Shown: positions 3,396-64,000 of the stretch, piece by piece
How positions within the stretch are numbered: the first letter of the stretch is position 1
Layout: every line of letters starts with the position of its first letter
IMG/VR virus record: IMGVR_UViG_3300037455_000402
Coordinates: 10,951 to 74,950 of that record
Reading direction: 5' to 3' (one strand)
DNA: 64,000 bases
From: a virus
Lineage: Duplodnaviria > Heunggongvirae > Uroviricota > Caudoviricetes
The notes under the pieces: model-generated
What the model was told of the DNA's origin: nothing
What the model saw: only the letters and a program-made list of their open reading frames with translations
The model's database searches: none
Made by a program: the position numbers and the translations under genes

Positions 3396-4013
3396 TGACT
3401 TGAAAACTTCATAAAAAATATGATTGCCAGTTTTTATCCTGTACTCATACAACGCTACGCATTATTCAGCCACAGTGACGATAAGTCTGAGCCCCATCCC
3501 CGTCGAGATGAAACTTCTTACCGCAGTTTCCGAAGAAACCCAAGCACTAAGGGGACTCTGTTTACCCCCAACTTTCACCCGTCATTCAGAATATTTGATT
3601 ACTATAAATCTTCTTTAAAGTTTTCAAACCAAACTGAGCCTTGGGCTACTCGCACCACCGTCAGGTTCTTACACGTTTCCGTGTAAGTGTAGGCTCAACT
3701 CCATTATTTTGCGTTCCCTGTATTTGCTCACGTCTTGCGGACGTGGTCTGCAGGGTTATTCCTCACTGAGGCGTCTATTGTTGGAGCAACCAGTTTAGGT
3801 GTGCCATTGCTCACGTTGCACCTGTGCCACGACTTCTCTCTTGATGGCTGGTATACCATCTTGTTCCGCCGCCTTTCGACTTCGGAAAAGAAACCTTATC
3901 AAGGTATCCCTTGACCTGACCTCTCAGCAGTTTCACCGTGCCCTTGCAGAGCTGACTAAGCCCTCATTTTAACACAAGGTTACAACATACTTTTTATGAA
4001 GTTTTCAAGTTTC
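3396..4013 (-). ncRNA. candidate large structured ncRNA (~620 nt; ROOL/GOLLD-like placement)
   Basis: no ORF >90 aa on either strand; 5' ACUUGAAAACUUCAUA and 3' UAUGAAGUUUUCAAGU form a perfect 15-bp terminal stem; sits between tRNA-Ile and tRNA-Ala. Confidence 0.45.
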
Positions 4014-4321: not shown

Positions 4322-4410
4322 TGGCGGGAGCGACAGGGTTCGAACCTGCATAGGAAATAAATTTCCGACGGTTAACAGCCGCCTGCCTGAGACCGTTAGG
4401 CTACACTCCC
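4322..4410 (-). tRNA. type-II (long variable arm) tRNA with GUU anticodon, G73 discriminator (Ser-like body, Asn anticodon)
   Basis: acceptor GGGAGTG/CGCTCCC, anticodon stem GGCGG/CCGTC loop CTGTTAA, 13-nt variable hairpin GGAAATTTATTTCC, T-arm GCAGGTTCGAACCCTGT, GCCA end. Confidence 0.5.
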
Positions 4411-5339: not shown

Positions 5340-5415
5340 TGGCTGACAAGGTGGGACTCGAACCCACAACCCCGCGGTTAACAGCCGCGTGCTCTGCCAG
5401 TTGAGCTACTCGCCA
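5340..5415 (-). tRNA. tRNA-Asn(GUU)
   Basis: anticodon stem CGCGG/CCGCG loop CTGTTAA; U1-A72 acceptor TGGCGAG/CTTGTCA; CCA encoded. Confidence 0.75.
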
Positions 5416-5608: not shown

Positions 5609-5641
5609 CGCCAGTTGTTTTTGTTTCTTTCTTAACCTTTT

Positions 5642-5679
5642 CTATAAATATTATATCATAGTTTTTAGAAGAAGTCAAG
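5642..5679 (-). promoter_or_regulatory. consensus promoter TTGACT-N17-TATAAT
   Basis: TTGACTTCTTCTAAAAACTATGATATAAT; transcript runs into hairpins H2/H1 with no ORF (possible ~120-nt sRNA). Confidence 0.65.
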
Positions 5680-5708
5680 ATTTTTTAAACTCAAATTTTT
5701 GAAATTAT

Positions 5709-5782
5709 TGGTTGCGGACCGTAGACTCGAACTACGAACTCAAGCTTATGAGGCTTGTATTATGCCATTTCACTAATCCGCA
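5709..5782 (-). tRNA. tRNA-Met/Ile2(CAU)
   Basis: anticodon stem CAAGC/GCTTG loop CTCATAA; U1-A72; CCA encoded. Confidence 0.7.
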
Positions 5783-7686: not shown

Positions 7687-7956
7687 TTACTTTTCCTCCC
7701 TCTCAAAATAATCCGCAGGATAACACCAGAAATAGTCGTCGATGTAGAAGTGGTCAAAAGCAAGAAGACCATACTTCTGTTCTCTCTGCTCCTTGATGTT
7801 TGCTTCAAGTTCTGCAAGCAGTTCCTTAGCATCTTCTTCGTTATGATTTTCCTTGATATACTCAACGACATAATCATAAGCAAGATTAATGTCTGAGAAT
7901 ATCTTATAGTTACAGTCGTGGTCTTCAAGAATGAAGAGTTCTCTTACAGGTTTCAT
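7687..7956 (-). CDS. hypothetical protein (89 aa)
   Basis: ORF track; AAGGAAGTAAAACATATG RBS. Confidence 0.55.
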   Translation of the reverse strand: MKPVRELFILEDHDCNYKIFSDINLAYDYVVEYIKENHNEEDAKELLAELEANIKEQREQKYGLLAFDHFYIDDYFWCYPADYFEREEK

Positions 7957-7983
7957 ATGTTTTACTTCCTTTCTCTTAACTTT

Positions 7984-8021
7984 CTATATATATTATATCA
8001 AAAGTTTTCTAAAAAGTAAAG
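7984..8021 (-). promoter_or_regulatory. consensus promoter TTTACT-N17-TATAAT
   Basis: CTTTACTTTTTAGAAAACTTTTGATATAAT. Confidence 0.65.
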
Positions 8022-8044
8022 ATTTTAAAAGCTTTAAATTTTAA

Positions 8045-8480: not shown

Positions 8481-8552
8481 CTGAAGCTGAGGAGACTCGA
8501 ACTCCTAACCTACGGCTTCCCGCCGCTGCTCTCCCTATTGAGCTACAACCCC
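8481..8552 (-). pseudogene. tRNA-Ala-like pseudo-tRNA or tRNA-like element (no canonical anticodon loop, no CCA)
   Basis: 5' half GGGGTTGTAGCTCAATAGGGAGAGC nearly identical to tRNA-Ala at 3317-3395; G3:U70 kept; anticodon arm GCGGC-GGGAA-GCCGT has a 5-nt loop. Confidence 0.4.
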
Positions 8553-8817: not shown

Positions 8818-8896
8818 TGGTGGACGATACGGGAATCGAACCCGTCTGATTTCCTGTTTGCAGGACAGGTGACCACCCCTTGCAGTCCCATCGCCC
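8818..8896 (-). tRNA. tRNA-Ala(UGC) variant with C33
   Basis: G3:U70; anticodon stem CCTGT/ACAGG loop CCTGCAA (C at position 33); CCA encoded. Confidence 0.55.
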
Positions 8897-10786: not shown

Positions 10787-11179
10787 TTATGCGAAGTAAA
10801 GTCCTTCAGACCAAGAAGGAAAATCAGGTTCAATTACCTGAGCCGCAGACTCTCCTGCCATTTTTCCGTCTTCCCACCAGTGCATCCACCAGTCCTTGCT
10901 GTCTTCACCCTCGCCCTCAAGAGCGAACTTGAACTCAGGGAATTTTGCAGCGAACGCAGTCATATCCTCATCGTGTTCATACCATTTCCAGTCAGAAGAG
11001 TATTCAACAAGACTGTTGAGAAGCTCTATATTACTATCAAGCTCATCTTCCTTGAAATAAGAGCCATTGAAGATACGAGCAAACTCAGTTGCAAGTTTCG
11101 GAAATGCAGAATGTTCTGCAGTTATAGGGTTATTCTCTTTATCGACGATTGTCATTTTGAAATTGGTTATGTATCCCAT
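10787..11179 (-). CDS. hypothetical Trp-rich acidic protein (130 aa)
   Basis: ORF track; AAGGAAGTTAAAAATATG RBS. Confidence 0.55.
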   Translation of the reverse strand: MGYITNFKMTIVDKENNPITAEHSAFPKLATEFARIFNGSYFKEDELDSNIELLNSLVEYSSDWKWYEHDEDMTAFAAKFPEFKFALEGEGEDSKDWWMHWWEDGKMAGESAAQVIEPDFPSWSEGLYFA

Positions 11180-11206
11180 ATTTTTAACTTCCTTTCTTCA
11201 CCTTTT

Positions 11207-11244
11207 CTATAATAATTATAACATAATTTTTTAGAAAAGTCAAG
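11207..11244 (-). promoter_or_regulatory. consensus promoter TTGACT-N17-TATAAT
   Basis: TTGACTTTTCTAAAAAATTATGTTATAAT. Confidence 0.7.
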
Positions 11245-11267
11245 TTTTATTTTTCATAAATTTTTAA

Positions 11268-11635: not shown

Positions 11636-11725
11636 TGGAGGTGATGGTCGGATTCGAACCGACGAGAAGGGGATTGCCCTGTTCACGGAGTTGCAGTCCG
11701 CCGCCTTACCACTTGGCTACATCAC
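11636..11725 (-). tRNA. type-II tRNA with GCA (Cys) anticodon, irregular acceptor end
   Basis: 3-bp D-stem GCC/GGC (Ser/Leu-like), anticodon stem GCGGA/TCCGT loop CTGCAAC, ~21-nt variable arm, T-arm GTCGGTTCGAATCCGAC; 3' end CATCACU-CCA with G1-U72 and no clear discriminator. Confidence 0.45.
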
Positions 11726-11763
11726 CATTTGTGAGAGAGATTTTAAATGTCTCTCTCAACTTT

Positions 11764-11802
11764 TCTATATATATTATAGCATATTTTTTTTTAAATTGTA
11801 AA
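11764..11802 (-). promoter_or_regulatory. consensus promoter TTTACA-N18-TATAAT
   Basis: CTTTACAATTTAAAAAAAAATATGCTATAAT. Confidence 0.65.
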
Positions 11803-13301: not shown

Positions 13302-13652
13302 TGGTGGAGATGACGGGAATCGGACCCGTGTCCAAACCTCTTAGTATCTATCGTCTACAAGTTTAGGATTCCCGAGCCTGTTCTCTTCTTGCCGCGCTCT
13401 TTCGGGACCACGAATGGCGGTAGCGTATTGGTCATTAATACGACTTACTGTCACCAAGCCAGTAAGAAGAATAAAGAATAAAATCGAAAGGGATGATAGA
13501 GTTCTTCTTTATTAGTAAACTACGATAACCCTTATGAGCTGCGATTAGGCAGCAAATGCAAAATCGTTTGCGTTTAAGTTTAAGTTGGCTATAAGGTTGC
13601 CGACCACTTGCAGATAGGGAACGCCAAAGCCTGTCGAAACCTAAACATCCCC
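13302..13652 (-). ncRNA. ssrA: tmRNA (SsrA), tag reading frame ...ANDFAFAA-stop
   Basis: 5' GGGGAUGUUUAGGUUUCGACAGG matches tmRNA 5' consensus; 3' GGACACGGGUCCGAUUCCCGUCAUCUCCACCA tRNA-like end; internal GCAAACGATTTTGCATTTGCTGCCTAA = ANDFAFAA*. Confidence 0.8.
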
Positions 13653-13748: not shown

Positions 13749-13825
13749 TGGTTTCTCCGCTGCGATTCGAACGCAGGAATGGCAGTTTTAGAGACTGCTG
13801 TCTTGAGCCACTTGACGACGGAGAA
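13749..13825 (-). tRNA. amber suppressor tRNA(CUA), Gln-like
   Basis: U1-A72 acceptor TTCTCCG/CGGAGAA, D-arm TCGTCAAGTGGCTCAAGAC, anticodon stem GCAGT/ACTGC loop CTCTAAA (C34-U35-A36); CCA encoded. Confidence 0.75.
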
Positions 13826-14269: not shown

Positions 14270-14344
14270 TGGTTGCCGCGCAAGGAATCGAACCTTGGTA
14301 CGAAGGGTTAGAGCCTTCAGTCCTGCCACTTAGACGACGCGGCA
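14270..14344 (-). tRNA. amber suppressor tRNA(CUA), second, Gln-like
   Basis: U1-A72 TGCCGCG/CGCGGCA, D-arm TCGTCTAAGTGGCAGGAC, anticodon stem GAAGG/CCTTC loop CTCTAAC; CCA encoded. Confidence 0.75.
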
Positions 14345-25072: not shown

Positions 25073-25473
25073 TCGTTCTCCTCCCTAACAAACCCAACGA
25101 ACTCATTGGGACAGCCGTGACAATCACTATTGGTGCACTCGCCACACCAGTGACCAAATGGATTCCAGCCCATACCGTCTTCGTGACAGCCGTAAGATAT
25201 TGTTGCCTGTAAACAGCCGTCGTAAATCTTTGAATAAAGTTCGCCATCGGTGTCGTCAAAACGAACAGTGTTACCAACAACATTCTCGTACTTATGAGCC
25301 TCCTCGCTAAAATGACGAAGGAAGGTTATGTCCTCCCAGTCTTCAGCCCACGACTCATCATTGGGAAACTCTTTTACCTTTTCAGCGAGATACTCTTCTG
25401 CTTTCATAAAAGCATCTCTCCAAGAGGGAAAGAGCATACAAAACTTATCTCGAAGAAATGTTATTTGTATCAT
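25069..25473 (-). CDS. hypothetical Cys/His-rich protein (134 aa)
   Basis: ORF track; AAGGAGTTTGTAAATG RBS; C-terminal HWCGECTNSDCHGCP. Confidence 0.5.
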   Translation of the reverse strand: MIQITFLRDKFCMLFPSWRDAFMKAEEYLAEKVKEFPNDESWAEDWEDITFLRHFSEEAHKYENVVGNTVRFDDTDGELYSKIYDGCLQATISYGCHEDGMGWNPFGHWCGECTNSDCHGCPNEFVGFVREENE

Positions 25474-25496
25474 TTACAAACTCCTTTCTTAACTTT

Positions 25497-25534
25497 CTAT
25501 ATATATTATAGCATAATTTTTATAAAAAGTAAAG
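25497..25534 (-). promoter_or_regulatory. consensus promoter TTTACT-N17-TATAAT
   Basis: CTTTACTTTTTATAAAAATTATGCTATAAT. Confidence 0.65.
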
Positions 25535-25539
25535 AATTA

Positions 25540-38802: not shown

Positions 38803-40281
38803 TCACTTCCAGCAGAACTGTGGACGTGTAAGTATCTGTGTCATAGCCTCAACAGAGTCCATTGTAATAAGAGTTGTAAGCTCCTTAAATGTTGCTGCTG
38901 AGCTACCAGAAACATATGCGATGCCAGGGTTGCCACACTTACTAATGAAACGATTACCACGAGAGCATACGTTCCACATAATAAGCTTAGGAGCAACAAG
39001 ACCAGCCTTAGCATAAGCCTTCTGCCACTTCTCAACGATAGTATCAACGTTGCCGCGTGAAGCGAAAGCGTCAATCTCACCGTCTGAGATTATAACAAGT
39101 GCCTCAGGTGCCTCGCCTGCCTTTATAGCAGTACGATAAATAGCATCGAAAGCGCCGTCGAGGTTAGTGTTGTAACCTACGTGCTTCATTACCTCGTTTA
39201 CACGAGAAGCAACGGTATCAGTTGGGTTAAGCTCATAAAGAGAAGGTCTGTCAGTGAATGTAAGGAAGAGGTTCTTGTAAGGACCTGAGTTACGCTCAGC
39301 AAAGTAAATACCAAGAGATACAGAAGTAGCAATTGGCTTATTACCCTCGCAGTACATAGAACCAGATACGTCTGACATTACAATGACATTGTGCTCACCC
39401 TCGACATAGTCAGGAAGAGCCTTCCACTGAGCCTCAAGAACCTTATCAACCTCAAGGTTGTAACGTGAATACCAACCTGAAGTCTGGTTAATGTAAGGCA
39501 TAATAAGGTCATATGGGTAAGATACACTTGCGTTAATCTTAGCCTCGCCCTTAGTAACAGCGTTAATGAACTTGTCAAAACGCTCATAGTCGTGACGACC
39601 GAAAGCAGAACGGTATCTTGTCATAGCGACAGATGGAACTGCCTGATAGTCGATAGCACCGAACTGGTTAGAAGACATCTTCTTCTCAACGACATCAAGG
39701 TACTTACGAAGAGCTGCGAGAGTCTTACGATATGTACGCTCGGTTATGCCGAAGTAAGTGTAGACCTTACGAGCAAGTCTACGAGTCTCCTTAGAGCTGG
39801 TGTTTGGAGAAGGAAGCCACTTAGCAAGAAGAGATATGCTCTCGTTCTTGGTCATGTCCTTAATATCCTTAGTAAACTGAGCCTTCATAAACTCAAGAGC
39901 CTCTGTCTCGACAGAAGTTCCCTCAAGGACGAACAAGTCGTCCCAACGACCTGCAGATACGATAGTATCAAGATTGCGAGCAACCTTTGCAGGGTCCTTA
40001 AGTGCAAGAGTCTTCAAAAGAGTTCTTGCAATTCTACGCTCACCGATACCACCCTCACGGATGTTACGAGCATAAAGTATCATATTGTCAGCAAGCTCCT
40101 TGTCAGAGTTGCGGGCATCAAGATACATACGGTTAAGCTCAGCCTCAGTAGCCTTACGCATACCACCAATTCTTGCAAAAAGGTTTAATACAGGGTTACC
40201 AGTAGTAGAGCAAACCTTAGCACCGTTCTCGGTGTAAGCTACATTTGTCTGATTTCTGAATGAGTTTGCGAAATTACTCAT
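38803..40281 (-). CDS. Ro60 ortholog (TROVE domain + C-terminal vWA; Rsr-like)
   Basis: 492 aa; N-terminal TROVE-like region (…NPVLNLFARIGGMR…); C-terminal vWA MIDAS VIVMSDVSGSM and ...PKLIMWNV... pattern comparable to Ro60 LLAVDVSASM...LIVCGMT. Confidence 0.6.
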   Translation of the reverse strand: MSNFANSFRNQTNVAYTENGAKVCSTTGNPVLNLFARIGGMRKATEAELNRMYLDARNSDKELADNMILYARNIREGGIGERRIARTLLKTLALKDPAKVARNLDTIVSAGRWDDLFVLEGTSVETEALEFMKAQFTKDIKDMTKNESISLLAKWLPSPNTSSKETRRLARKVYTYFGITERTYRKTLAALRKYLDVVEKKMSSNQFGAIDYQAVPSVAMTRYRSAFGRHDYERFDKFINAVTKGEAKINASVSYPYDLIMPYINQTSGWYSRYNLEVDKVLEAQWKALPDYVEGEHNVIVMSDVSGSMYCEGNKPIATSVSLGIYFAERNSGPYKNLFLTFTDRPSLYELNPTDTVASRVNEVMKHVGYNTNLDGAFDAIYRTAIKAGEAPEALVIISDGEIDAFASRGNVDTIVEKWQKAYAKAGLVAPKLIMWNVCSRGNRFISKCGNPGIAYVSGSSAATFKELTTLITMDSVEAMTQILTRPQFCWK

Positions 40282-41714: not shown

Positions 41715-42626
41715 TTAATGAGCTGCCATATCAGCTTCATGAAGAAGCTCATAAACTGCTCTCATTTCGCCGCCGTAAAGACGCTCAAACTCATCAATGA
41801 AATTGTCTCTGAAATAATACTCCATATGCCACTGAATAAGGACAATAAGTGCTGCATAAAAGTCGTACTGCTTAGAAGCAAACTGACCAACACAACAAGC
41901 TACCATATAGGCTCCCACTTCGTGGTGATTATAGAAATGTGAATGGTCATCTTCCTTGCCGTTATACTTCATACGGGACTTAACGACAGGCTTACCAATA
42001 TCGTGGAATAATGCGGCAGTACGTGCAAGATGCTTAAGGTTCTTATCCAAACCCTTCTCTGCCGCGTGGTCAGAAGCGTACTTACTTGCCTCTAACATAT
42101 GATGAAATATATCAAGCTGATGATGAGGATTATCGTGGTCTACACCACAAGCATCAAAAAGATACTCACCGAGCGTCTTCTTGTTCTTAGGATTTGGAAT
42201 CATACGGATAGAGTCCCAGCCCTCATCAAGACGAGGAAGAGACATTTCTCTATACATACGCCAGATAACCTCTTCAGGAACGTGACGCATACGATTAGCG
42301 TTCTGCTCTAAGATAACGTCGATTTCCGTAGCTGCTACTACAGCAATCTTCTTAACGTCCTTAGGAAGTTCCTTTAAAAAATTCTTTCTACGCTTACGAG
42401 ATAAGTTCGTTGCGTCATAAACACAAGACTGTCCATTTGCAAGGTAGTTCTTTATACGCTTATGAAGCTCGTTGAATACCTCGCCGTTATGAGACTGGTC
42501 GTCCTCAGAACCGAATAACTCTGCTCGGATAGCATCTGAGGAGACAATAGGACAGCCAAGGTCACGAGCAATGAATGACTTACCAGAGCCAGCTACGCCG
42601 ACCATCATATAAAATACAGCACTCAT
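41715..42626 (-). CDS. P-loop NTPase/kinase fused to HD-domain phosphohydrolase (candidate polynucleotide kinase-phosphatase or dNTP hydrolase)
   Basis: N-terminal MMVGVAGSGKSF Walker A; C-terminal HD motifs (LFHDIGK, HHEVGAY, H..D). Confidence 0.55.
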   Translation of the reverse strand: MSAVFYMMVGVAGSGKSFIARDLGCPIVSSDAIRAELFGSEDDQSHNGEVFNELHKRIKNYLANGQSCVYDATNLSRKRRKNFLKELPKDVKKIAVVAATEIDVILEQNANRMRHVPEEVIWRMYREMSLPRLDEGWDSIRMIPNPKNKKTLGEYLFDACGVDHDNPHHQLDIFHHMLEASKYASDHAAEKGLDKNLKHLARTAALFHDIGKPVVKSRMKYNGKEDDHSHFYNHHEVGAYMVACCVGQFASKQYDFYAALIVLIQWHMEYYFRDNFIDEFERLYGGEMRAVYELLHEADMAAH

Positions 42627-42696: not shown

Positions 42697-43848
42697 TTAT
42701 TTAAAAGATTTTATTGTTGACTCATTATCAGAAGTGTAAAGGTTAATCTTTCCTTCCGCCGCCGTAAGTATCTCTGTTCCTGCAAACTCATTAGTATGAG
42801 TTACCACAAGAGAAGGCTTAGCTTTAATACCCTTCATTTCAAAATACTTAGAGTCACGAATAGCTCTTGCTACTGCGGCGTTAGCTTCTCTTTGGTCAAA
42901 TTTACCATAACGAAGAGTTCCCTGATTAGGGTTAGGCACATTCGTAGCATCAAACATATCGGCATTGATTGCCGCCTTATCGCACTCAAGGTTAGAAGTC
43001 TGTCCTATCTGTCCCTTGCCGTGACGAGTAAGGTATGTACGAGTTACATAGAGGGTTTCAATATCTACTTCCCCCTTGTCAAAGTTCTGGGCGATTATCT
43101 GAGAAGGCACTTTCGCGCCGACATAGGCAGGAGTATTATGCTCGAAGTCATAATTGTGGTCATCCGCAAGAAGAAGTCCCTGACCATTCTCAAAGACGAG
43201 AAGAGGATAAGAATGGAGAAGCGCCTTCTCTTCTGTATCATTCTTAATCAAGGTAATATGGTCATAAAACCACTGGAAGTCCTCGTCAATATTTGGTTCG
43301 AGATATTCTCCGTGAAGAAAGTTAGTAACATCTTCAGGAAGTGTACCGTCCTTATCTCTAAGGACATCCTCATAATACTTGATTATAGTATCAAGATGAT
43401 AATGAGGTGTACCTGCCATTTCAGTACAAACCCTATGACGATTTAATGACTCCCAAACGCCGCATCCCGTAGATGAATGAGACTTATCGCCGCGGCGCTC
43501 TTCTACGTTTACATTTGCAAACATATCAACGGGAGATACCATAACGCCGCCTATTTTTGCATAGACCTTGGGCGTAATTCCCATAGCTTCAAGTTCTTCC
43601 CACTCACGTCTGAACATAGCGGGATTTACCATAAACTCTTCGGAAAAGTAAGTAGCGGCACCTTTGAGAGTACCGCTACCAAAGTGGCGGAAAACTCTCC
43701 TTACGCCGTTTTCTACTACCGTATGCGCCCTCTGACAAGAGTTTGAGGGCAGGATATTGAGACAGGTTGGTGTAGATACCGCATTGGCAACGAGTCCTTT
43801 CGACTCGTCACCATAGTTAAGTCCAGTTACGATTTTAATTTCCGCCAT
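42697..43848 (-). CDS. adenylosuccinate synthetase homolog (PurA/PurZ family)
   Basis: GLNYGDESKG (PurA GDEGKGK P-loop), AHTVV (GHT), STGCG (TTGRGIGP), YVTRTYLTRHGKG; 383 aa. Confidence 0.55.
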   Translation of the reverse strand: MAEIKIVTGLNYGDESKGLVANAVSTPTCLNILPSNSCQRAHTVVENGVRRVFRHFGSGTLKGAATYFSEEFMVNPAMFRREWEELEAMGITPKVYAKIGGVMVSPVDMFANVNVEERRGDKSHSSTGCGVWESLNRHRVCTEMAGTPHYHLDTIIKYYEDVLRDKDGTLPEDVTNFLHGEYLEPNIDEDFQWFYDHITLIKNDTEEKALLHSYPLLVFENGQGLLLADDHNYDFEHNTPAYVGAKVPSQIIAQNFDKGEVDIETLYVTRTYLTRHGKGQIGQTSNLECDKAAINADMFDATNVPNPNQGTLRYGKFDQREANAAVARAIRDSKYFEMKGIKAKPSLVVTHTNEFAGTEILTAAEGKINLYTSDNESTIKSFK

Positions 43849-46044: not shown

Positions 46045-46950
46045 TTACTTAATGAGACCTCTTGCAAGCTTCATTGAAAGTGAGCCACAAATCTTACCGA
46101 AGTTCTCAATCTGAGCTACAGTCTCGGGCTCCTCCTTTACACAGTCATTGTAAATTGCTCTTGGAAGATTCTTAGCGATTGTACCAAGGTCCTTCTCGTC
46201 CCAGTTCTCTGGAACAATGCCGTCCTCAACGAACTTCTGAATTGCCTTCTCAACTCTTCTTGGAGTTACGATAGTCTCTGCAAGAGCCTCTGCAGCCTGT
46301 CTTGCTGCAATCTTTGCAGGGTCAATGTCCTTCTGAGGCTTTGACTGATGAACCTCAGAGAACTCCTTTGCAACAATCTTTACATATGCAGGAGTACCGC
46401 TGAACTTATTGTCAAGTCTGTCCTGAGACTTAATAACTACACCCTCACCTGTAGGCTCACCGCCCATCTCTGTCTTACCAACAAAAGAGTAAACGTGCTC
46501 CCAAGAGATGAAAGGACCGTCGTAAAATACAGGAACCATCTTAAGACCGCAGAACTCTGCCATCTGCTTGGTCTGCTCCCATGGAATGTACTGCTCAATC
46601 TCAGTATCCCATACGTCGAAAACATAGAACTGCTTCATCTTCTCCTGTGGGTACTTAATAGTGTGCTTAACGAGCCACTCACCGAAGAAAATGTATCTTG
46701 TACCAAGTACACAAGAAATCATAGTAGGGTCAAGTGACTGAACATACTCGTAGAAACCCTGAAGGTTGCTCTCAGGAGTAAGCTCATTTCTTCTTGAAAA
46801 AGCAATAAGCTTACCGTCCTCGCCAACTGCGATTGATGCGTTTGCACCGTCTATCTTCTCTGTAATTGTAATATGCTCTCCCACCTTGAAAGCCTCAGCG
46901 AACTTGTCCTTGAGTCTCTCAATATCAACATACTTTTTCATTAACATCAT
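46045..46950 (-). CDS. RNA ligase, T4 Rnl2-like (nick-sealing family)
   Basis: motif I EKIDGANASI (T4 Rnl2 EKIHGTNFSL), FGEW, YVFDVWDTE, EGVVIK, KIVAKEF align with Rnl2 motifs. Confidence 0.65.
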   Translation of the reverse strand: MMLMKKYVDIERLKDKFAEAFKVGEHITITEKIDGANASIAVGEDGKLIAFSRRNELTPESNLQGFYEYVQSLDPTMISCVLGTRYIFFGEWLVKHTIKYPQEKMKQFYVFDVWDTEIEQYIPWEQTKQMAEFCGLKMVPVFYDGPFISWEHVYSFVGKTEMGGEPTGEGVVIKSQDRLDNKFSGTPAYVKIVAKEFSEVHQSKPQKDIDPAKIAARQAAEALAETIVTPRRVEKAIQKFVEDGIVPENWDEKDLGTIAKNLPRAIYNDCVKEEPETVAQIENFGKICGSLSMKLARGLIK

Positions 46951-52897: not shown

Positions 52898-53257
52898 TTA
52901 AATTCTAAAAGAGTAAACCTCATCTGACTTTGCTGCAATTAGTTGTGTATCTATTGGTGAAATAAATTCATCGACTACCGCCATATCCCAGCGGTCTCCA
53001 CGAGGCATATGGTCTGAGACAATTAAAACTTTAATTATATTACGTTTCTCTTTATCAATCAATTTAACTGTTGTAGAAGAAATAGTACAATCATAGCTTT
53101 TATTCATAGACAAAACTCTGTGGTCTTTTACCATAAAGGCAAGTATCCTATCCCTTGCCCATGTAAAATGTTTCTCATTAGCAACAGCAATACAAGCGGT
53201 AAAATTGTCTTCTGTTAAAAATCTATGAAGTAAAAAATTAATTTCTATATCGTTCAT
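52898..53257 (-). CDS. hypothetical protein (119 aa)
   Basis: ORF track; ATG overlaps TAA of upstream GIY-YIG gene. Confidence 0.5.
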   Translation of the reverse strand: MNDIEINFLLHRFLTEDNFTACIAVANEKHFTWARDRILAFMVKDHRVLSMNKSYDCTISSTTVKLIDKEKRNIIKVLIVSDHMPRGDRWDMAVVDEFISPIDTQLIAAKSDEVYSFRI

Positions 53258-54270
53258 TATGAATTACCTGCCGTACTATTGTATCCCCATGTATTTGCAT
53301 GGTAGAATGAAATGTACTCCTTTTCCTTTCCATTTAATTCGTCAGTATCACATTCAGCAAGAACTTCAAAAGTGAAATTCTCTGCACCCTCTTCCCACAT
53401 TGCATTATAAAGCTTATTAGAAGTACCTGGCTCTGCTTTTACACCACGCTTTAAGTGAGTACGCCAACGTTCCTTAAAAGCCTATTTTGTTTGTCCGATA
53501 TAAACTTTGCCGTTTTCGAGATTGGTGATTTTATAGATACCAGTATTGCCACGTCCAGTAACAACTCGTCCTACCATTTCATTGAATGGACGCTCATAAT
53601 AGTTCTTATAAATTAATTTGTAAAGAACAGAAGGGTCGTGAAGTTCGTCGGCAATTTTGCGAAGCTTCTTAACATCTTCAATATCATTTTCAGAAAGAAC
53701 AATACGATAGAAATTTTTATCTTCTTTAATCTTTTCTGCTCTTTTATATTCCTCAATGATTTCTTGCTATTTAGCTTCAGCAGCCTTGACTTCTTTTTCA
53801 AGTTGAGCCTTTTTAGCTTTCATTTCAACAGAGAAATTCTAAAATTCTTCTGATATGTTAATCTTCTACTGGTCATAATAATCCATTACAGATTGAAGTT
53901 GTAGAGCCCCTTCTTTTGATTTGTTCTGTACCTCAGTAGCAAGTTCTGCCGCCAAAGCTTGGAGCTAATCGTCTCTTCGCTTACGAGCTGCCGCAAGGTC
54001 CATATCTAAATTCTTTATAGATTCTTCAATGGAACGACGCTTTCTCGCTGCTTCTTCTATAGCATTACCGAGTTCAAGTTTAATAGCTAATTCTTCTTCA
54101 CTAATTCTTTTCTTACGCTTAGCTTCGAGAGCCTTAAGAGCTTCCTATTTGGCTGTTTCAAAATCTTTAACTGCCTTTTCAGAAACAGATATCTGCTGGT
54201 GAACGGCTAAACAATAGCCGCCCCAGCCCGCAAAAAGACAACAGATTATAGCAATAAAAATATATCCCAC
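53257..54270 (-). CDS. GIY-YIG nuclease-domain protein (N-terminal TM helix + coiled coil), six in-frame TAG codons
   Basis: single frame from GTG (GAGGTGG RBS) to TAA; C-terminal GIYKITNLENGKVYIGQTK-TAG-AFKERWRTHL...KLYNAMWEEG...NFTFEVL GIY-YIG signature lies downstream of the TAGs. Confidence 0.6.
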
Positions 54271-59447: not shown

Positions 59448-62400
59448 TTAAACGATATATTTACAAGTATCACTCGTAGGCCAATATAATGGTGTTGAAC
59501 CATGGAAATGTGCAGCGTGCTAATTTTCACAGTTAGCTATTTTGCTCATAATATTATCTGGTGATTCAGAATAAGTGTGTGTCTAATCATTATATACAAC
59601 TGGCTATTGGAAACCAGTACAGCTATGAAGATAGGCAATATTTGCCCTGTTATTAAATGTATCTACCGCAGCTGTACTATCTGTTTGTACAATTTTACCA
59701 TGCACGCTGGTATCTTGTCTATAGCCATTTGTCATATCAATACTAATACGAGCATCAGAAACCTAAGAAGATGTTGAGTTAAATATTTCACCAGTACAAT
59801 TATCATGATTAAATCTATTTACATCAAAATACTTAATATTGCCTATGAATTTAGCAATAAAGGTTGCAGTATAACGAGACATACCATCCGGTTGAGAAGC
59901 GCCTCCATTAATATCAATACGGTAACAAGAGTTTCCACTCTTATCATTTATAACGTAAAACTGTCTCCAACGACCACCATCAGTGACATAGTATAAAGTT
60001 GGGCTATCTCCATAATTGTAGAAATAACCTTCATATCTTCCTATCGGTGCGCACATTACAATTTTACCGAGTACAGTATCTCCAACTTTAACTTCGGGGT
60101 CTCCATCTGCTGTTTCGCCAGGGGATAACTATCCTGCCTATGGAGATATAGAACTCATGTTAATATTGTTATAAGCATTTATATATCCAGACAAATCATT
60201 CTTATCATCAGAGGCATCTAATCCAGTTAAACTTTTAACTGACGGAATATAGAAATACATTGCATGAACTAATGAGCTATCCCAATAAACGTCGCCCCAA
60301 CCTGTAGAACCTTCATTTGTTCTTCCGCCGCCTTGCCAAGGAGTCAAACCAACTGTTGTAACAAAAAAGGCTGGGTTCTTGGAAATATCCTTATTTGTGC
60401 CATAATAAGCTTTAATGAAATTCTTTACTGCTACAAGTCCATCATAGTTCAATGTTGCAGTAGTAGGATATTTACAAGATTTTTCTACTGGAGGCTAACT
60501 GTAACAAATATTATTGCCTAATCCACTTGGGCAATTATCTTTTTCACTACCATCGTAAGCTTTATTATAGGTATCCCATCTGAAACGATAATATCTGGTG
60601 TTTGTATTTGCAGAGTTATATACTCTTGTTTTAGTAACATTGCCTCTCATTGAAGTAAATTTATAAGTTGAACCAGCTTTTACAGAAGACATTGTAAAAG
60701 CAGTATCGCCGCCGTTATCTGTTGGTAAATAGTTTCCTATCTTTAATACATAAGCGTTATCAGTAAATAGGTTTTCAGAAGATGTTTCTTCTGCAGTTTT
60801 CTTCTTCCATGAAACTGTTTCACCCATATAGTATCCCTATCTATTTATGCCATAGTCACAAACATGAATTCCCTAATCATAAACAAGAGGTACATCTAAA
60901 TCAGTGGTAAAGCCAAAAGTGCTTGTTCTCTATGTCTAATTATTGTAAGTATAATAACCGAGAGGAGTAGTTGGCTGTCCAGCCATACCACTATCATCAA
61001 CAAGTTTTCTTGCGGCATCTTCAATAATAAAATAATTACCTTGAGAACTTCCAGTTGAAATTGTTATTTTTCCTTCATCGTCACGACTAAATGAATTAAA
61101 GAAAGGAGTAATTCTTAAATTACCATAACAAGTTTTCTTTTTTCCATCGGGACTTACTACAACCTAAGCTTTATCAAAAGGTCTTAGCCACATTATTCTT
61201 CCATTATAGTCCTGATTTGTACCATAAATAAAAGGAGAAAATCTCTTCTGTCCATTTTTTATGTGTTCATTACGTAATGAAATAACAAAAGCATATTCGT
61301 CTTCGCCATTTCTCTCGCAGACTTCTTTAAATTCCCAAGTCTGAGTTTTCTGATAATAAATAAAGAAGCCGGGGTAATAAACGCTACCATAATAATTATG
61401 TTTGTAATTATCAAAACGTAAATAAGGCATTACAACTAAATCCTATTCAGAATACTAATCACAAAGATAACTTAAACGCTTTTCAACGGTTTCTATAAAA
61501 TCATTTTTACTACCAACAAAAGTAACGGTATAGAAACCAGAAGCATCTACAGACCAATGAATTAATTCATCCCATTTATCAAACTTGTCATAATGACGAC
61601 AGTTCTCACTTTCACGTGGCGGCAAAGGAATATGAACAAAACGAATGTCACTCTTTGCTGTTTGATTTATTACGGCAATTTCAGTCCAAAGATAAAGAAC
61701 ATTCTCCCATAACTCTGAGACTTCTCTTGTTAATCCCTAAAGAGTCTTAGGAATTGGACCGTCAGTTCCAAATAGATAATTGCTAATAGCAGAAATAACT
61801 TGTGCGATTACCCAAAAGTTACGGTCTAAATCTTCTATCTCTACTCTGCGGCCGTACTGCGGCATTAAAAGCCTTAACCATTTTTCAATTAAGTCTTCTC
61901 CCTCTGCCTAATCATAAGCTTCACGGGTATATTGCATTGCAGTATCATTCTTTAATATCTCTAAAACTTCGTCTTTCTTTCTTACTTCATCATAGTTTTT
62001 ATCATCAATATTCCACCAAGGGTGAACCCATTCTTCTTCATTAGCTCTTTCTCCAATAGGGAAATTATATCCAGCATCAGAATTTTTAAGGTCAGCTATT
62101 GTAATACTATGTTCCTTAGTATCAAGAGGTAAAAGAATATTATCATTATTATTATCAAAATTATCAATTATATATTGAATAAGTTTCTAAACTGATTCAT
62201 TCCAATATTCATCTTCGCCGCCTTCTATTAAATCAACAATTCCGTCATATAATTTACTAACGAAAATTGGGTCGGTAGAACTACCATGGTCACGATGTAC
62301 GCAATCACAATTCTTTTCAATATAGTCCATTAAAGAATCCTAAGTCATTCCAGTTAAGGGAGAAGGCTCGCCATGGAGTGTGGCGAGCATATTCTTCCAA

Positions 62401-64000
62401 AAATCCTTCTATGTCTCAGGTGTTAAACCAATGGTCTATATTAACACACTTATATCAATAATTGTTTTTAAAGGTGTTAACCAGTTTTCCATTTAATCAC
62501 CTCATCTTGTATATCCATTATAAGGATATGCGTCATAATCAGGATATGTTGCTATTATCATATTATTATTAGGTCCTGCAGGATTGGTATTTGGAGTATA
62601 ATAGTTAATTCCAAGAATCTAATTCTTTTCTCCCTACTGCTAAACACTATAGCCTTTTTGAACCTAACAATAAGGAAAGTCTGTAAGATTAATGTCTAAT
62701 GTTCCCTCTGGAGTTGAACGAACTAAATCGCCACTTGTAGTAGGGTCATCTTTTTCTATCTTATAGCTATATAAACGTGGAATAGTATTGCTTCCACTCT
62801 TCTATAAATAAGCATAGTCAAAAAATGTTCTCATTATTAATTGTTTAGGATTTCTTCCACTATGCCAAATTGTTGACCCAGGGAATCTTTTATCTTTATC
62901 TCTCCAAGAGTGATAAAAGGCATCGGGATGACTTATTAAATCTGAATGGTCTCCTTCGATATTAGCCATAGTGATAATTTTTAAATACCAATCATCAACT
63001 TCCTAAACTAAACCTAAACCATGTTTAGTATAAAGTTCAAATCTATATGCTGAGGCGCCATTAGCTTCTGAATTTTCTGCCCATGCGCCAGGAACATTAT
63101 ATTCACTATATGTCCACATTGCTCCATTATTTGCGCCAGTACCAAATACATAAGGAGTATTACTTCCAGGCATATAAATAACCAATCCTAAATCAATACC
63201 TTGAGAACCTCTAATACCCTAATGAGGAACTAAAGTTGAATTTTCAACAGTATAATAAGTATATGTTCCGTGTGTTGGGTTATCTGTTCCTGCGTAGTAA
63301 TAATGACTTATCATTACGTAGAATTTAGATATATCTCGTTTTCCTTTTGCAACTATTTCTTCCTCAAAATATTTCTAAAGGACTTCATTTGCAGTTGCAA
63401 TTCTCGCTGCCTGATTAGTCTCTGCGGTCGCGCGGTCGCCATCTTGATATGGGAACATTTCAACACATTCAACTTCAATATGATGATTAAGTACAGCATC
63501 ATCATAAGTGCTAAGTAATTCTCCCTGATAATATCCTTTACTAATATTAATACTTCTTATACCCGGGTCTGCAGGAAACGGTACTGAATTTATTTCAGTT
63601 ACATAATCTACATAATCTTGACCTGAATAATTAATGTACTAAAAAGTAGAATAAATAAGAGTAGGTGTTCGTCCAATTAATCCCGCGCCTATATCGTGAA
63701 ATTCTATTTTTACTGTAATATAATGAGTATCATCAACTTCTCCAGCTATTTGAATATTATCTCTAAGAAGTCCATAGAATCTTGTTTCATCAGTAGTCTA
63801 TTCACTATCAGCATTAGATAAGAATGTTACGTATTTATATACATCTTCCTACTCCTATATTCCTACAATATAGTCTTTATAATCATTAACAGAGATTATT
63901 AATGGCTAAGTCATTTCCTCATCTTTATATAAAGGATGTATATCCCATGCTGCATTTTCTTTATTTCTGTCGTAAATCCAAACGCCTGGAAGCCATACAG
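59448..64000 (-). CDS. very large structural (tail-fibre/receptor-binding-like) protein, many in-frame TAG codons, continues beyond window
   Basis: ORF-track pieces 59763-60056, 60138-60452, 60495-60827, 61164-61430, 63003-63185 are all in one frame; checked junctions contain only TAG; Gly/Asn/Tyr/Thr-rich beta-type composition; TAA at 59448. Confidence 0.5.

Follow-up and report, generated by a model that had tools for sequence, protein, structure and literature searches.

We find that the minus-strand tRNA gene at 11726 to 11636 of the window (the whole 64-kb stretch of DNA that was analysed) is best filed as a tRNA-Cys, and that the analogy with selC* tRNA-Cys or allo-tRNAs fails. Judging from its sequence, it quite probably encodes a phage elongator tRNA-Cys(GCA) with a regular 7/5 acceptor/T branch and a hairpin in the variable region, which would be charged with cysteine and used at UGY codons. 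The gene and its parts are the following.

11636-11726, minus strand: complete tRNA-Cys(GCA) gene including the encoded CCA, 91 nt (ARAGORN, RF00005, MFE fold).
11720-11726, minus strand: 5' strand of the acceptor stem, GGUGAUG, tRNA positions 1-7, with G1 at 11726 (sequence; 7/7 pairs with 11640-11646).
11703-11717, minus strand: D arm GCCAAGUGGUAAGGC with three Watson-Crick pairs, an A13.A22 mismatch, G15 and G18G19 (fold).
11685-11701, minus strand: anticodon arm GCGGA-CUGCAAC-UCCGU, with GCA at 11692-11694 (ARAGORN, fold).
11664-11684, minus strand: variable region GAACAGGGCAAUCCCCUUCUC, 21 nt (fold, comparison with canonical loops, shuffle test).
11647-11663, minus strand: T arm GUCGG-UUCGAAU-CCGAC, 5 bp, with a canonical T loop (RF00005, fold).
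11636-11646, minus strand: 3' strand of the acceptor stem CAUCACC (11640-11646), U73 (11639) and CCA (11636-11638) (sequence).

ARAGORN calls a gene of 91 nt with the anticodon GCA at position 33. Read 5' to 3', the RNA runs GGUGAUG UA GCCAAGUGGUAAGGC G GCGGA CUGCAAC UCCGU GAACAGGGCAAUCCCCUUCUC and, directly after this, GUCGG UUCGAAU CCGAC CAUCACC U CCA. The general tRNA covariance model of Rfam, RF00005, matches 11639-11726 with 63.0 bits, compared with a gathering score of 29, and is the top match of its Rfam clan; the E-value was 1.8e-11 in a search of 42 kb and 1e-13 in a local search. The alignment spans the full model (1-71), with the 19-nt arm handled as an insertion. The MFE fold is a cloverleaf (-30.9 kcal/mol) with an acceptor stem of 7 bp, a D stem of 3 bp, an anticodon stem of 5 bp, the variable hairpin and a T stem of 5 bp. 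A preliminary description of this DNA had placed a tRNA gene here, with a Cys (GCA) anticodon in the loop CUGCAAC, a variable arm of about 21 nt and a perfect T arm, and had proposed covariance models as a check of the fold. On all of these points ARAGORN, RF00005 and the fold agree with it.

The 3' end is a different matter. It had been described as irregular, ending in CAUCACU-CCA, which would give either G1-U72 and no separate discriminator or a stem of 6 bp with a U discriminator. This goes back to a registration error of one base: the gene starts at 11726 and not at 11725, and its 3' strand reads CAUCACC-U-CCA. GGUGAUG and CAUCACC form seven perfect Watson-Crick pairs including G1-C72, followed by a separate U73 and the encoded CCA, so that the U discriminator, put forward as a Cys identity element, is real and lies at 11639. 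With U8 unpaired, the acceptor/T branch consists of 7 + 5 perfect pairs. The D stem of 3 bp closes a 9-nt loop that includes G18G19 and is free of insertions at 20a/20b. The three pairs had been noted correctly but called Ser/Leu-like; they are not specific to Ser or Leu, as at least 120 phage tRNA-Cys with a short variable loop share GCCAAGUGGUAAGGC.

U73 and the GCA anticodon are the major determinants for CysRS (Giege & Eriani, PMC9976931), and both are present (U73 at 11639; G34, C35 and A36). The Levitt pair G15:G48, a determinant for CysRS of the E. coli/Haemophilus type, is confined to few bacteria (PMC9976931). The tRNA described here has an ordinary G15:C48, the variable region ending in C, and the variable loops of canonical phage tRNA-Cys likewise end in C, without G15:G48. 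The anticodon loop has C38, where A38 is commoner; C38 is also found in 19 of the 113 canonical phage tRNA-Cys that were parsed.

Bacterial class II tRNAs are those for Ser, Leu, Tyr and Sec. By architecture, the tRNA-Cys has the hallmark of this class, an additional arm longer than 10 nt that emerges between positions 45 and 46 and forms base pairs. The 21 nt of GAACAGGGCAAUCCCCUUCUC contain a hairpin with a 4-bp stem AGGG/CCCU and a loop CAAUC, and an A-U pair across a bulged C could lengthen the stem to 5 bp. The flanks of the hairpin, GA...UC, match the canonical Cys variable loops of 4-5 nt (GAUC, UAUC, GAUUC), compared with which the insert adds about 16-17 nt. The region thus resembles a canonical loop that has received a hairpin at the class II site 45/46 and retained its core nucleotides.

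Is this architecture peculiar to one gene? We scanned for relatives with a single motif composed of the D arm, the GCA loop, a long gap and the T loop. Within the clade of the window, the same gene is present in an IMG/VR contig (L001) and a metagenome contig (L014), with differences in the arm at two unpaired positions only. A more distant member of this clade, L031, is identical at 70/70 nt outside the arm and has four changes within the 21 nt of the arm, which still folds; the tRNA-Cys, a tRNA-Val and promoter repeats are all that aligns between L031 and the window. About ten other lineages with a long-arm tRNA-Cys were found (L002, L009/L034, L012, L016, L019, L024, L027, L029/L033 and L032). 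These lineages differ from one another in the sequences of the acceptor, anticodon and T stems, and all of them have 12/12 acceptor/T pairs, U73, GCA, a variable region of 16-22 nt and a hairpin of 3-6 bp, the loop of which is often GAAA or GUAA. Perfect 7/5 pairing is seen in 18/18 long-arm sequences, and every example sits in a dense tRNA array of phage type.

In an alignment of 13 long-arm tRNA-Cys from about ten lineages, the four canonical helices are 99.6% paired, and 13/20 of their pairs show compensatory changes, a level reached by 0/500 shuffles; this count covers the four canonical helices. The arms were tested by shuffling per lineage, their MAFFT alignment not being a structural one. 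The hairpin of the window taken alone is weak (p = 0.086 compared with shuffles), but the hairpins of ten lineages combined fold better than shuffles (Fisher p = 2.5e-8) even though the arm sequences are unrelated. The arm thus seems to persist as a hairpin while its sequence, length and flanks drift. Such drift is more in keeping with a structural add-on, tolerated or mildly useful, than with an identity element that needs a precise orientation.

The same D arm GCCAAGUGGUAAGGC followed by a gap of normal length was found in at least 120 viral loci, and 113/113 canonical phage tRNA-Cys that were parsed have U73 and a variable loop of 4 or 5 nt. As a marker of tRNA-Cys this D-arm motif was rejected, since UUG (Gln) and GUU (Asn) anticodons are found with it as well. 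A scan of 185,579 representative cellular genomes, restricted to one D-arm motif, returned no long-arm tRNA-Cys. The 17 cellular hits of the long-gap pattern were rejected: they are canonical tRNA-Cys that have GTTCRA downstream by chance, one hit broken up by a run of masked N (L040), or archaeal genes with introns. An intron in the variable region was also considered as the source of the extra sequence itself and discarded. The archaeal introns (L005, L007, L023, L025, L028, L035 and L042) sit in the anticodon loop instead of the variable region, and for a group I intron hairpins of 16-22 nt are too small; furthermore, the window is of bacterial type (tmRNA, sigma-70-like promoter). In summary, by scans with one motif the long-arm tRNA-Cys is rare and found only in phage tRNA arrays.

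There is also a second type of long-arm tRNA-Cys(GCA) in large phage contigs, with U73, a Ser/Leu-like D loop GAGUGGUUGAA and short arms with a GAAA loop (L185 7961-8048, L204 214-302, L248 948-1033, L212 5074-5160, L238 7439-7528 and others). In the loci that carry a long-arm tRNA-Asn, 9/50 tRNA-Cys are 82 nt or longer; 9/9 of these have U73, GCA and the Ser/Leu-like D loop.

Long arms are not confined to cysteine. Among 120 viral loci picked regardless of arm length, 17 of the 714 tRNAs of isotypes other than Ser, Leu and Tyr are at least 82 nt long: Asn (4/33), Ile-UAU (7/36) and, in addition, Thr, His, Met and Glu. Most of the 17 owe their length to an extra hairpin in the variable region; there is at least one exception, a 97-nt Glu in L071, which is long through an internal duplication. 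Besides the tRNA-Cys, the window has a second long-arm tRNA, a tRNA-Asn(GUU) of 89 nt (4322-4410, minus strand) with G73 and a 17-nt arm GGAAAUUUAUUUCCUAU with a 5-bp stem, and also a tRNA-Asn copy of normal size (5340-5415, minus strand). A gene nearly identical to this long-arm tRNA-Asn occurs in L199, and the pattern is found in 112 IMG/VR viral contigs, many of them 100-540 kb long. Long-arm tRNA-Ile(UAU) is notably frequent (L083, L086, L099, L100, L109, L112 and L114), and there are further cases for Trp (L019 453-540), Met (L032 2390-2478 and L027 3586-3670), Pro (L009 1242-1328) and both Thr and His (L064). Full-text searches of the literature, incomplete in their coverage and hence no proof of novelty, turned up neither a 7/5 long-arm tRNA-Cys nor phage long-arm tRNAs of isotypes other than Ser, Leu and Tyr.

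The discriminators of the long-arm tRNAs, counted over all phage loci, are given by isotype.

Long-arm Cys: U in 25/26.
Long-arm Asn: G in 87/94.
Long-arm His: C in 5/5.
Long-arm Ile: A in 13/13.
Long-arm Met: A in 10/11.
Long-arm Trp: G in 3/3.

That each isotype keeps its discriminator argues that the long-arm tRNAs retain their cognate identity; if serine identity had been adopted throughout, another pattern would be expected. This bears on a reading in which the long arm confers serine identity on the tRNA-Cys, alone or together with Cys. SerRS would then charge it, and either Cys codons would be read partly as Ser or the Ser-tRNA(Cys) would be converted as in the Sec pathway. There is something to be said for it. 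Bacterial SerRS recognises its tRNAs mainly by the long variable arm, whatever the anticodon (PMC9976931), and Mukai et al. deemed G73 or U73 together with a long arm compatible with SerRS (PMC5389517). The tRNA-Cys has G1-C72, G2-C71 and C11-G24, and U73 instead of the usual bacterial G73 is found in 37 of the 146 unique long-arm phage tRNA-Ser in all fetched loci, so that a long arm with U73 could attract SerRS in some hosts. On the other hand, essentially all long-arm examples keep U73 and GCA, as expected if recognition by CysRS is selected for. The tRNA-Ser(GCU) of the window has G73 and an arm stem of 7 bp, compared with U73 and 4 bp in the tRNA-Cys, the D loop of which lacks the 20a/20b insertions of tRNA-Ser. 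The lengths of the arm and its flanks vary freely among lineages, unlike those of an orientation-dependent identity element. Finally, Pfam scans of the ORFs in the 64-kb window found no aminoacyl-tRNA synthetase, SelA, SepCysS, PSTK or elongation factor. On balance we regard serine charging as improbable.

The gene is part of an array of 43 tRNA genes, a tmRNA and a ROOL RNA, all on the minus strand (ARAGORN, Rfam). The array covers all 20 amino acids, and 11636-11726 is the sole tRNA-Cys within the 64-kb window; the preliminary description was right that the window has no canonical tRNA-Cys, as neither ARAGORN nor Rfam called a second tRNA with a GCA anticodon in the 64 kb. Since the window is a part of the genome, a canonical tRNA-Cys could lie elsewhere in it. 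The features of the surroundings to which we refer below are these.

11773-11802, minus strand: candidate sigma-70-like promoter TTTACA-18 nt-TATAAT with an extended-10 TG, 11/12 consensus matches (consensus match only).
11732-11758, minus strand: 10-bp hairpin of the predicted 5' leader, downstream of the candidate promoter and upstream of the tRNA-Cys (sequence).
3408-4003, minus strand: full-length ROOL RNA inside the tRNA array, 264 bits (Rfam).
13302-13652, minus strand: tmRNA inside the tRNA array, 108 bits, tag ANDFAFAA (ARAGORN, Rfam).
13749-13825 and 14270-14344, minus strand: two Gln-like CUA suppressor tRNAs (ARAGORN).
17996-18760, 21388-22512, 38803-40281, 41715-42626 and 46045-46950, all minus strand: RNA-repair-type gene set adjoining the array (Pfam scan).

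The candidate promoter (11802 to 11773) lies about 47 nt upstream of the 5' end of the tRNA-Cys. Together with the hairpin it makes up a cassette of about 60-90 nt (11732-11802, minus strand) that is repeated upstream of tRNAs and ORFs, with copies near 2640-2702, 5624-5709, 7953-8027, 11177-11263, 20484-20579 and 25469-25539. The cassette is common to the window, L001 and L031.

The suppressor tRNAs go together with in-frame TAG codons, of which there are 1 to 20 in each minus-strand ORF between 53257 and 63914 (for example, 20 in the 1014-aa ORF 59448-62492 and 13 in the ORF 62502-63914) and mostly none in and around the tRNA region. Taken as sequence features, the two point to a TAG-recoded bacteriophage, and the uneven distribution suggests that the recoding of TAG to Gln would be limited to a subset of genes. 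Six in-frame TAG are found in an ORF at 53257-54270 (minus strand) for a GIY-YIG (SegE-like) homing endonuclease with a long coiled-coil N-terminal part.

The RNA-repair set consists of a Thg1-like enzyme, Rnl1-like and Rnl2-like RNA ligases, a kinase plus HD phosphohydrolase, and a DUF2828/DUF7788 (Ro-like) protein; it suggests a conflict with host systems that cleave tRNAs. Besides the GIY-YIG endonuclease, the Pfam scans found a UvrD helicase and a Macro-domain protein in the window, and this protein content, with the RNA-repair set, supports a phage origin. The closest homologues of the DUF2828 protein, with 37-39% identity, come from human faecal phage fragments and from Listeria myoviruses. 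Among isolated phages, a BLAST search against 50,697 records gave no useful match to the locus, the tRNA-Cys or the long tRNA-Asn. Relatives of the phage are IMGVR_UViG_3300045988_136890 and OQVQ01000154.1. We also see a divergent adenylosuccinate-synthetase-like protein (42697-43848, minus strand; PF00709, E 6e-13), which, by its sequence, might act as a PurZ-type enzyme in the pathway to 2-aminoadenine DNA.

Some genes of the array are odd in other ways. At 8482-8552 (minus strand) there is a 71-nt tRNA-like gene which ARAGORN calls tRNA-Ser(GGA) and which has the alanine-type features G3.U70 and A73. It is without a long arm and without an encoded CCA, and its anticodon loop is aberrant, being either GGGAA, of 5 nt, or CGGGAAG with G33. 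This gene is kept in the relative L014 (11444-11514). A normal tRNA-Ser reading UCN was not seen in the window. The tRNA-Ala(UGC) at 8818-8896 (minus strand), of 79 nt, has G3.U70, C33 instead of U33 and an odd, unusually long D arm.

In such company one may ask whether the tRNA-Cys is used in translation at all. It might be a decaying pseudogene, a decoy for host enzymes that target tRNAs, or a donor for a non-ribosomal reaction. Its unusual architecture, the presence of clearly aberrant tRNA-like genes such as 8482-8552 in the same array, and the phage RNA-repair module, with the conflict over tRNAs that it suggests, all speak for this. We nevertheless find it unlikely. The stems pair perfectly, the T loop is of canonical form and the gene encodes the CCA; the tRNA body is 100% conserved in the diverged relative L031; and the compensatory changes in every variable helix across lineages indicate selection for a folded tRNA. 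Furthermore, within the 64-kb window the gene is the sole Cys-decoding supplier in an otherwise complete set.

For an elongator tRNA-Cys, the course of events might be as follows. The gene would be transcribed from its own candidate promoter inside the array of 43 tRNAs, and RNase P would trim the 5' end at 11726/11727. The tRNA would presumably be charged with cysteine by the host CysRS. CysRS is a class I synthetase, and class I enzymes leave the variable region of the tRNA facing the solvent. During infection the charged tRNA would then decode UGU and UGC, completing the phage tRNA set for 20 amino acids. The arm may be a tolerated structural add-on or, more speculatively, a mark by which nucleases or repair enzymes could tell phage tRNAs from those of the host.

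The latter idea can be extended to the long arms on Cys, Asn, Ile, Met and other tRNAs, which would be a phage-specific adaptation, that is, a structural tag and not a tolerated accident. Such a tag could allow escape from host defence nucleases that target tRNAs, or selective handling by the RNA-repair and Ro-like proteins of the phage. We put this forward tentatively, as a possibility on the doubtful side. If it is true, the long-arm tRNAs would be a previously unrecognised class of viral, class-II-like tRNAs with cognate identity kept. If they are charged with their cognate amino acids, then CysRS, AsnRS, IleRS and MetRS tolerate an extra arm, and phages repeatedly evolve such arms. There is also a consequence for annotation: tRNA finders and isotype classifiers may mislabel long-arm genes as Ser, Sec or pseudo-tRNAs.

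How does the tRNA-Cys compare with known families? With canonical tRNA-Cys of bacteria and phages it shares the 7-bp acceptor stem, U73, GCA, a D arm GCCAAGYGGUAAGGC with A13.A22, and the 5-bp anticodon and T stems; unlike these, which are class I with a loop of 4-5 nt, it has the extra hairpin between 45 and 46. With the class II tRNAs Ser, Leu and Tyr it has in common the stem-loop between 45 and 46, the 3-bp D stem and a non-Watson-Crick pair 13.22, and its 4-bp arm stem is within the range of Leu and Tyr in phage arrays. It differs from them in its U73, compared with A73 (Leu, Tyr) or mostly G73 (Ser), and in its D loop without 20a/20b. As a bacterial tRNA-Ser it does not qualify, given the 4-bp stem, the variable flanks, the lack of 20a/20b, U73 and GCA. 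The other long-arm phage tRNAs (Asn-GUU, Ile-UAU, Met, His, Thr, Trp, Pro and the second Cys type) likewise sit in phage arrays and have a 7/5 branch and a short hairpin, often with a GNRA-type loop, but they differ in isotype, their arm sequences are unrelated, and the second Cys type has a GAGUGGUUGAA-type D loop.

The preliminary description had been reminded of selC-like tRNAs and allo-tRNAs. The tRNA would then be tRNA-Sec-like and have a special elongation factor or a role in recoding. The selC* tRNA-Cys does share U73, a long variable arm and a GCA anticodon, UCA in some (PMC5389517, PMC7609411). Its acceptor/T branch is 8/4, usually with A51a as a bulge, and its acceptor and anticodon stems are longer (Mukai et al. 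2017, PMC5389517), whereas the tRNA described here pairs perfectly as 7/5, its anticodon stem has 5 bp, its D arm is of the ordinary tRNA-Cys type, and RF00005, the general model, is the best in its clan. The setting also differs: selC* tRNA-Cys is found in anaerobic bacteria, where it adjoins selB* in two deltaproteobacterial groups (in Desulfobacterales also cysS*) (PMC5389517), whereas our gene is in a phage array and the Pfam scans of the ORFs in the 64-kb window show no elongation-factor or CysRS domain, hence no selB*- or cysS*-like gene. Allo-tRNAs have a long variable arm and an anticodon other than Ser, Leu or Tyr, as here, and some of them, a tRNA-Ser subgroup of 8/4 form, are known from phages (Mukai et al. 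2017, PMC5389517). Their acceptor branch has 12 bp as 8/4 or 9/3, however, they have a long D stem with a tetraloop, and their predicted identity is serine (PMC5389517); we see 7/5 and, in place of a tRNA-Sec-like D arm, a 3-bp stem with a 9-nt loop. Bacterial tRNA-Sec itself, with a 13-bp branch (8/5), UCA and G73, is different in branch, anticodon and discriminator. Membership in the selC* or allo-tRNA families is thus very hard to credit, and the resemblance first seen does not hold up. The known class II exceptions, allo-tRNAs and selC*, have abnormal 8/4 or 9/3 branches; here we see an otherwise canonical 7/5 tRNA-Cys with an added arm.
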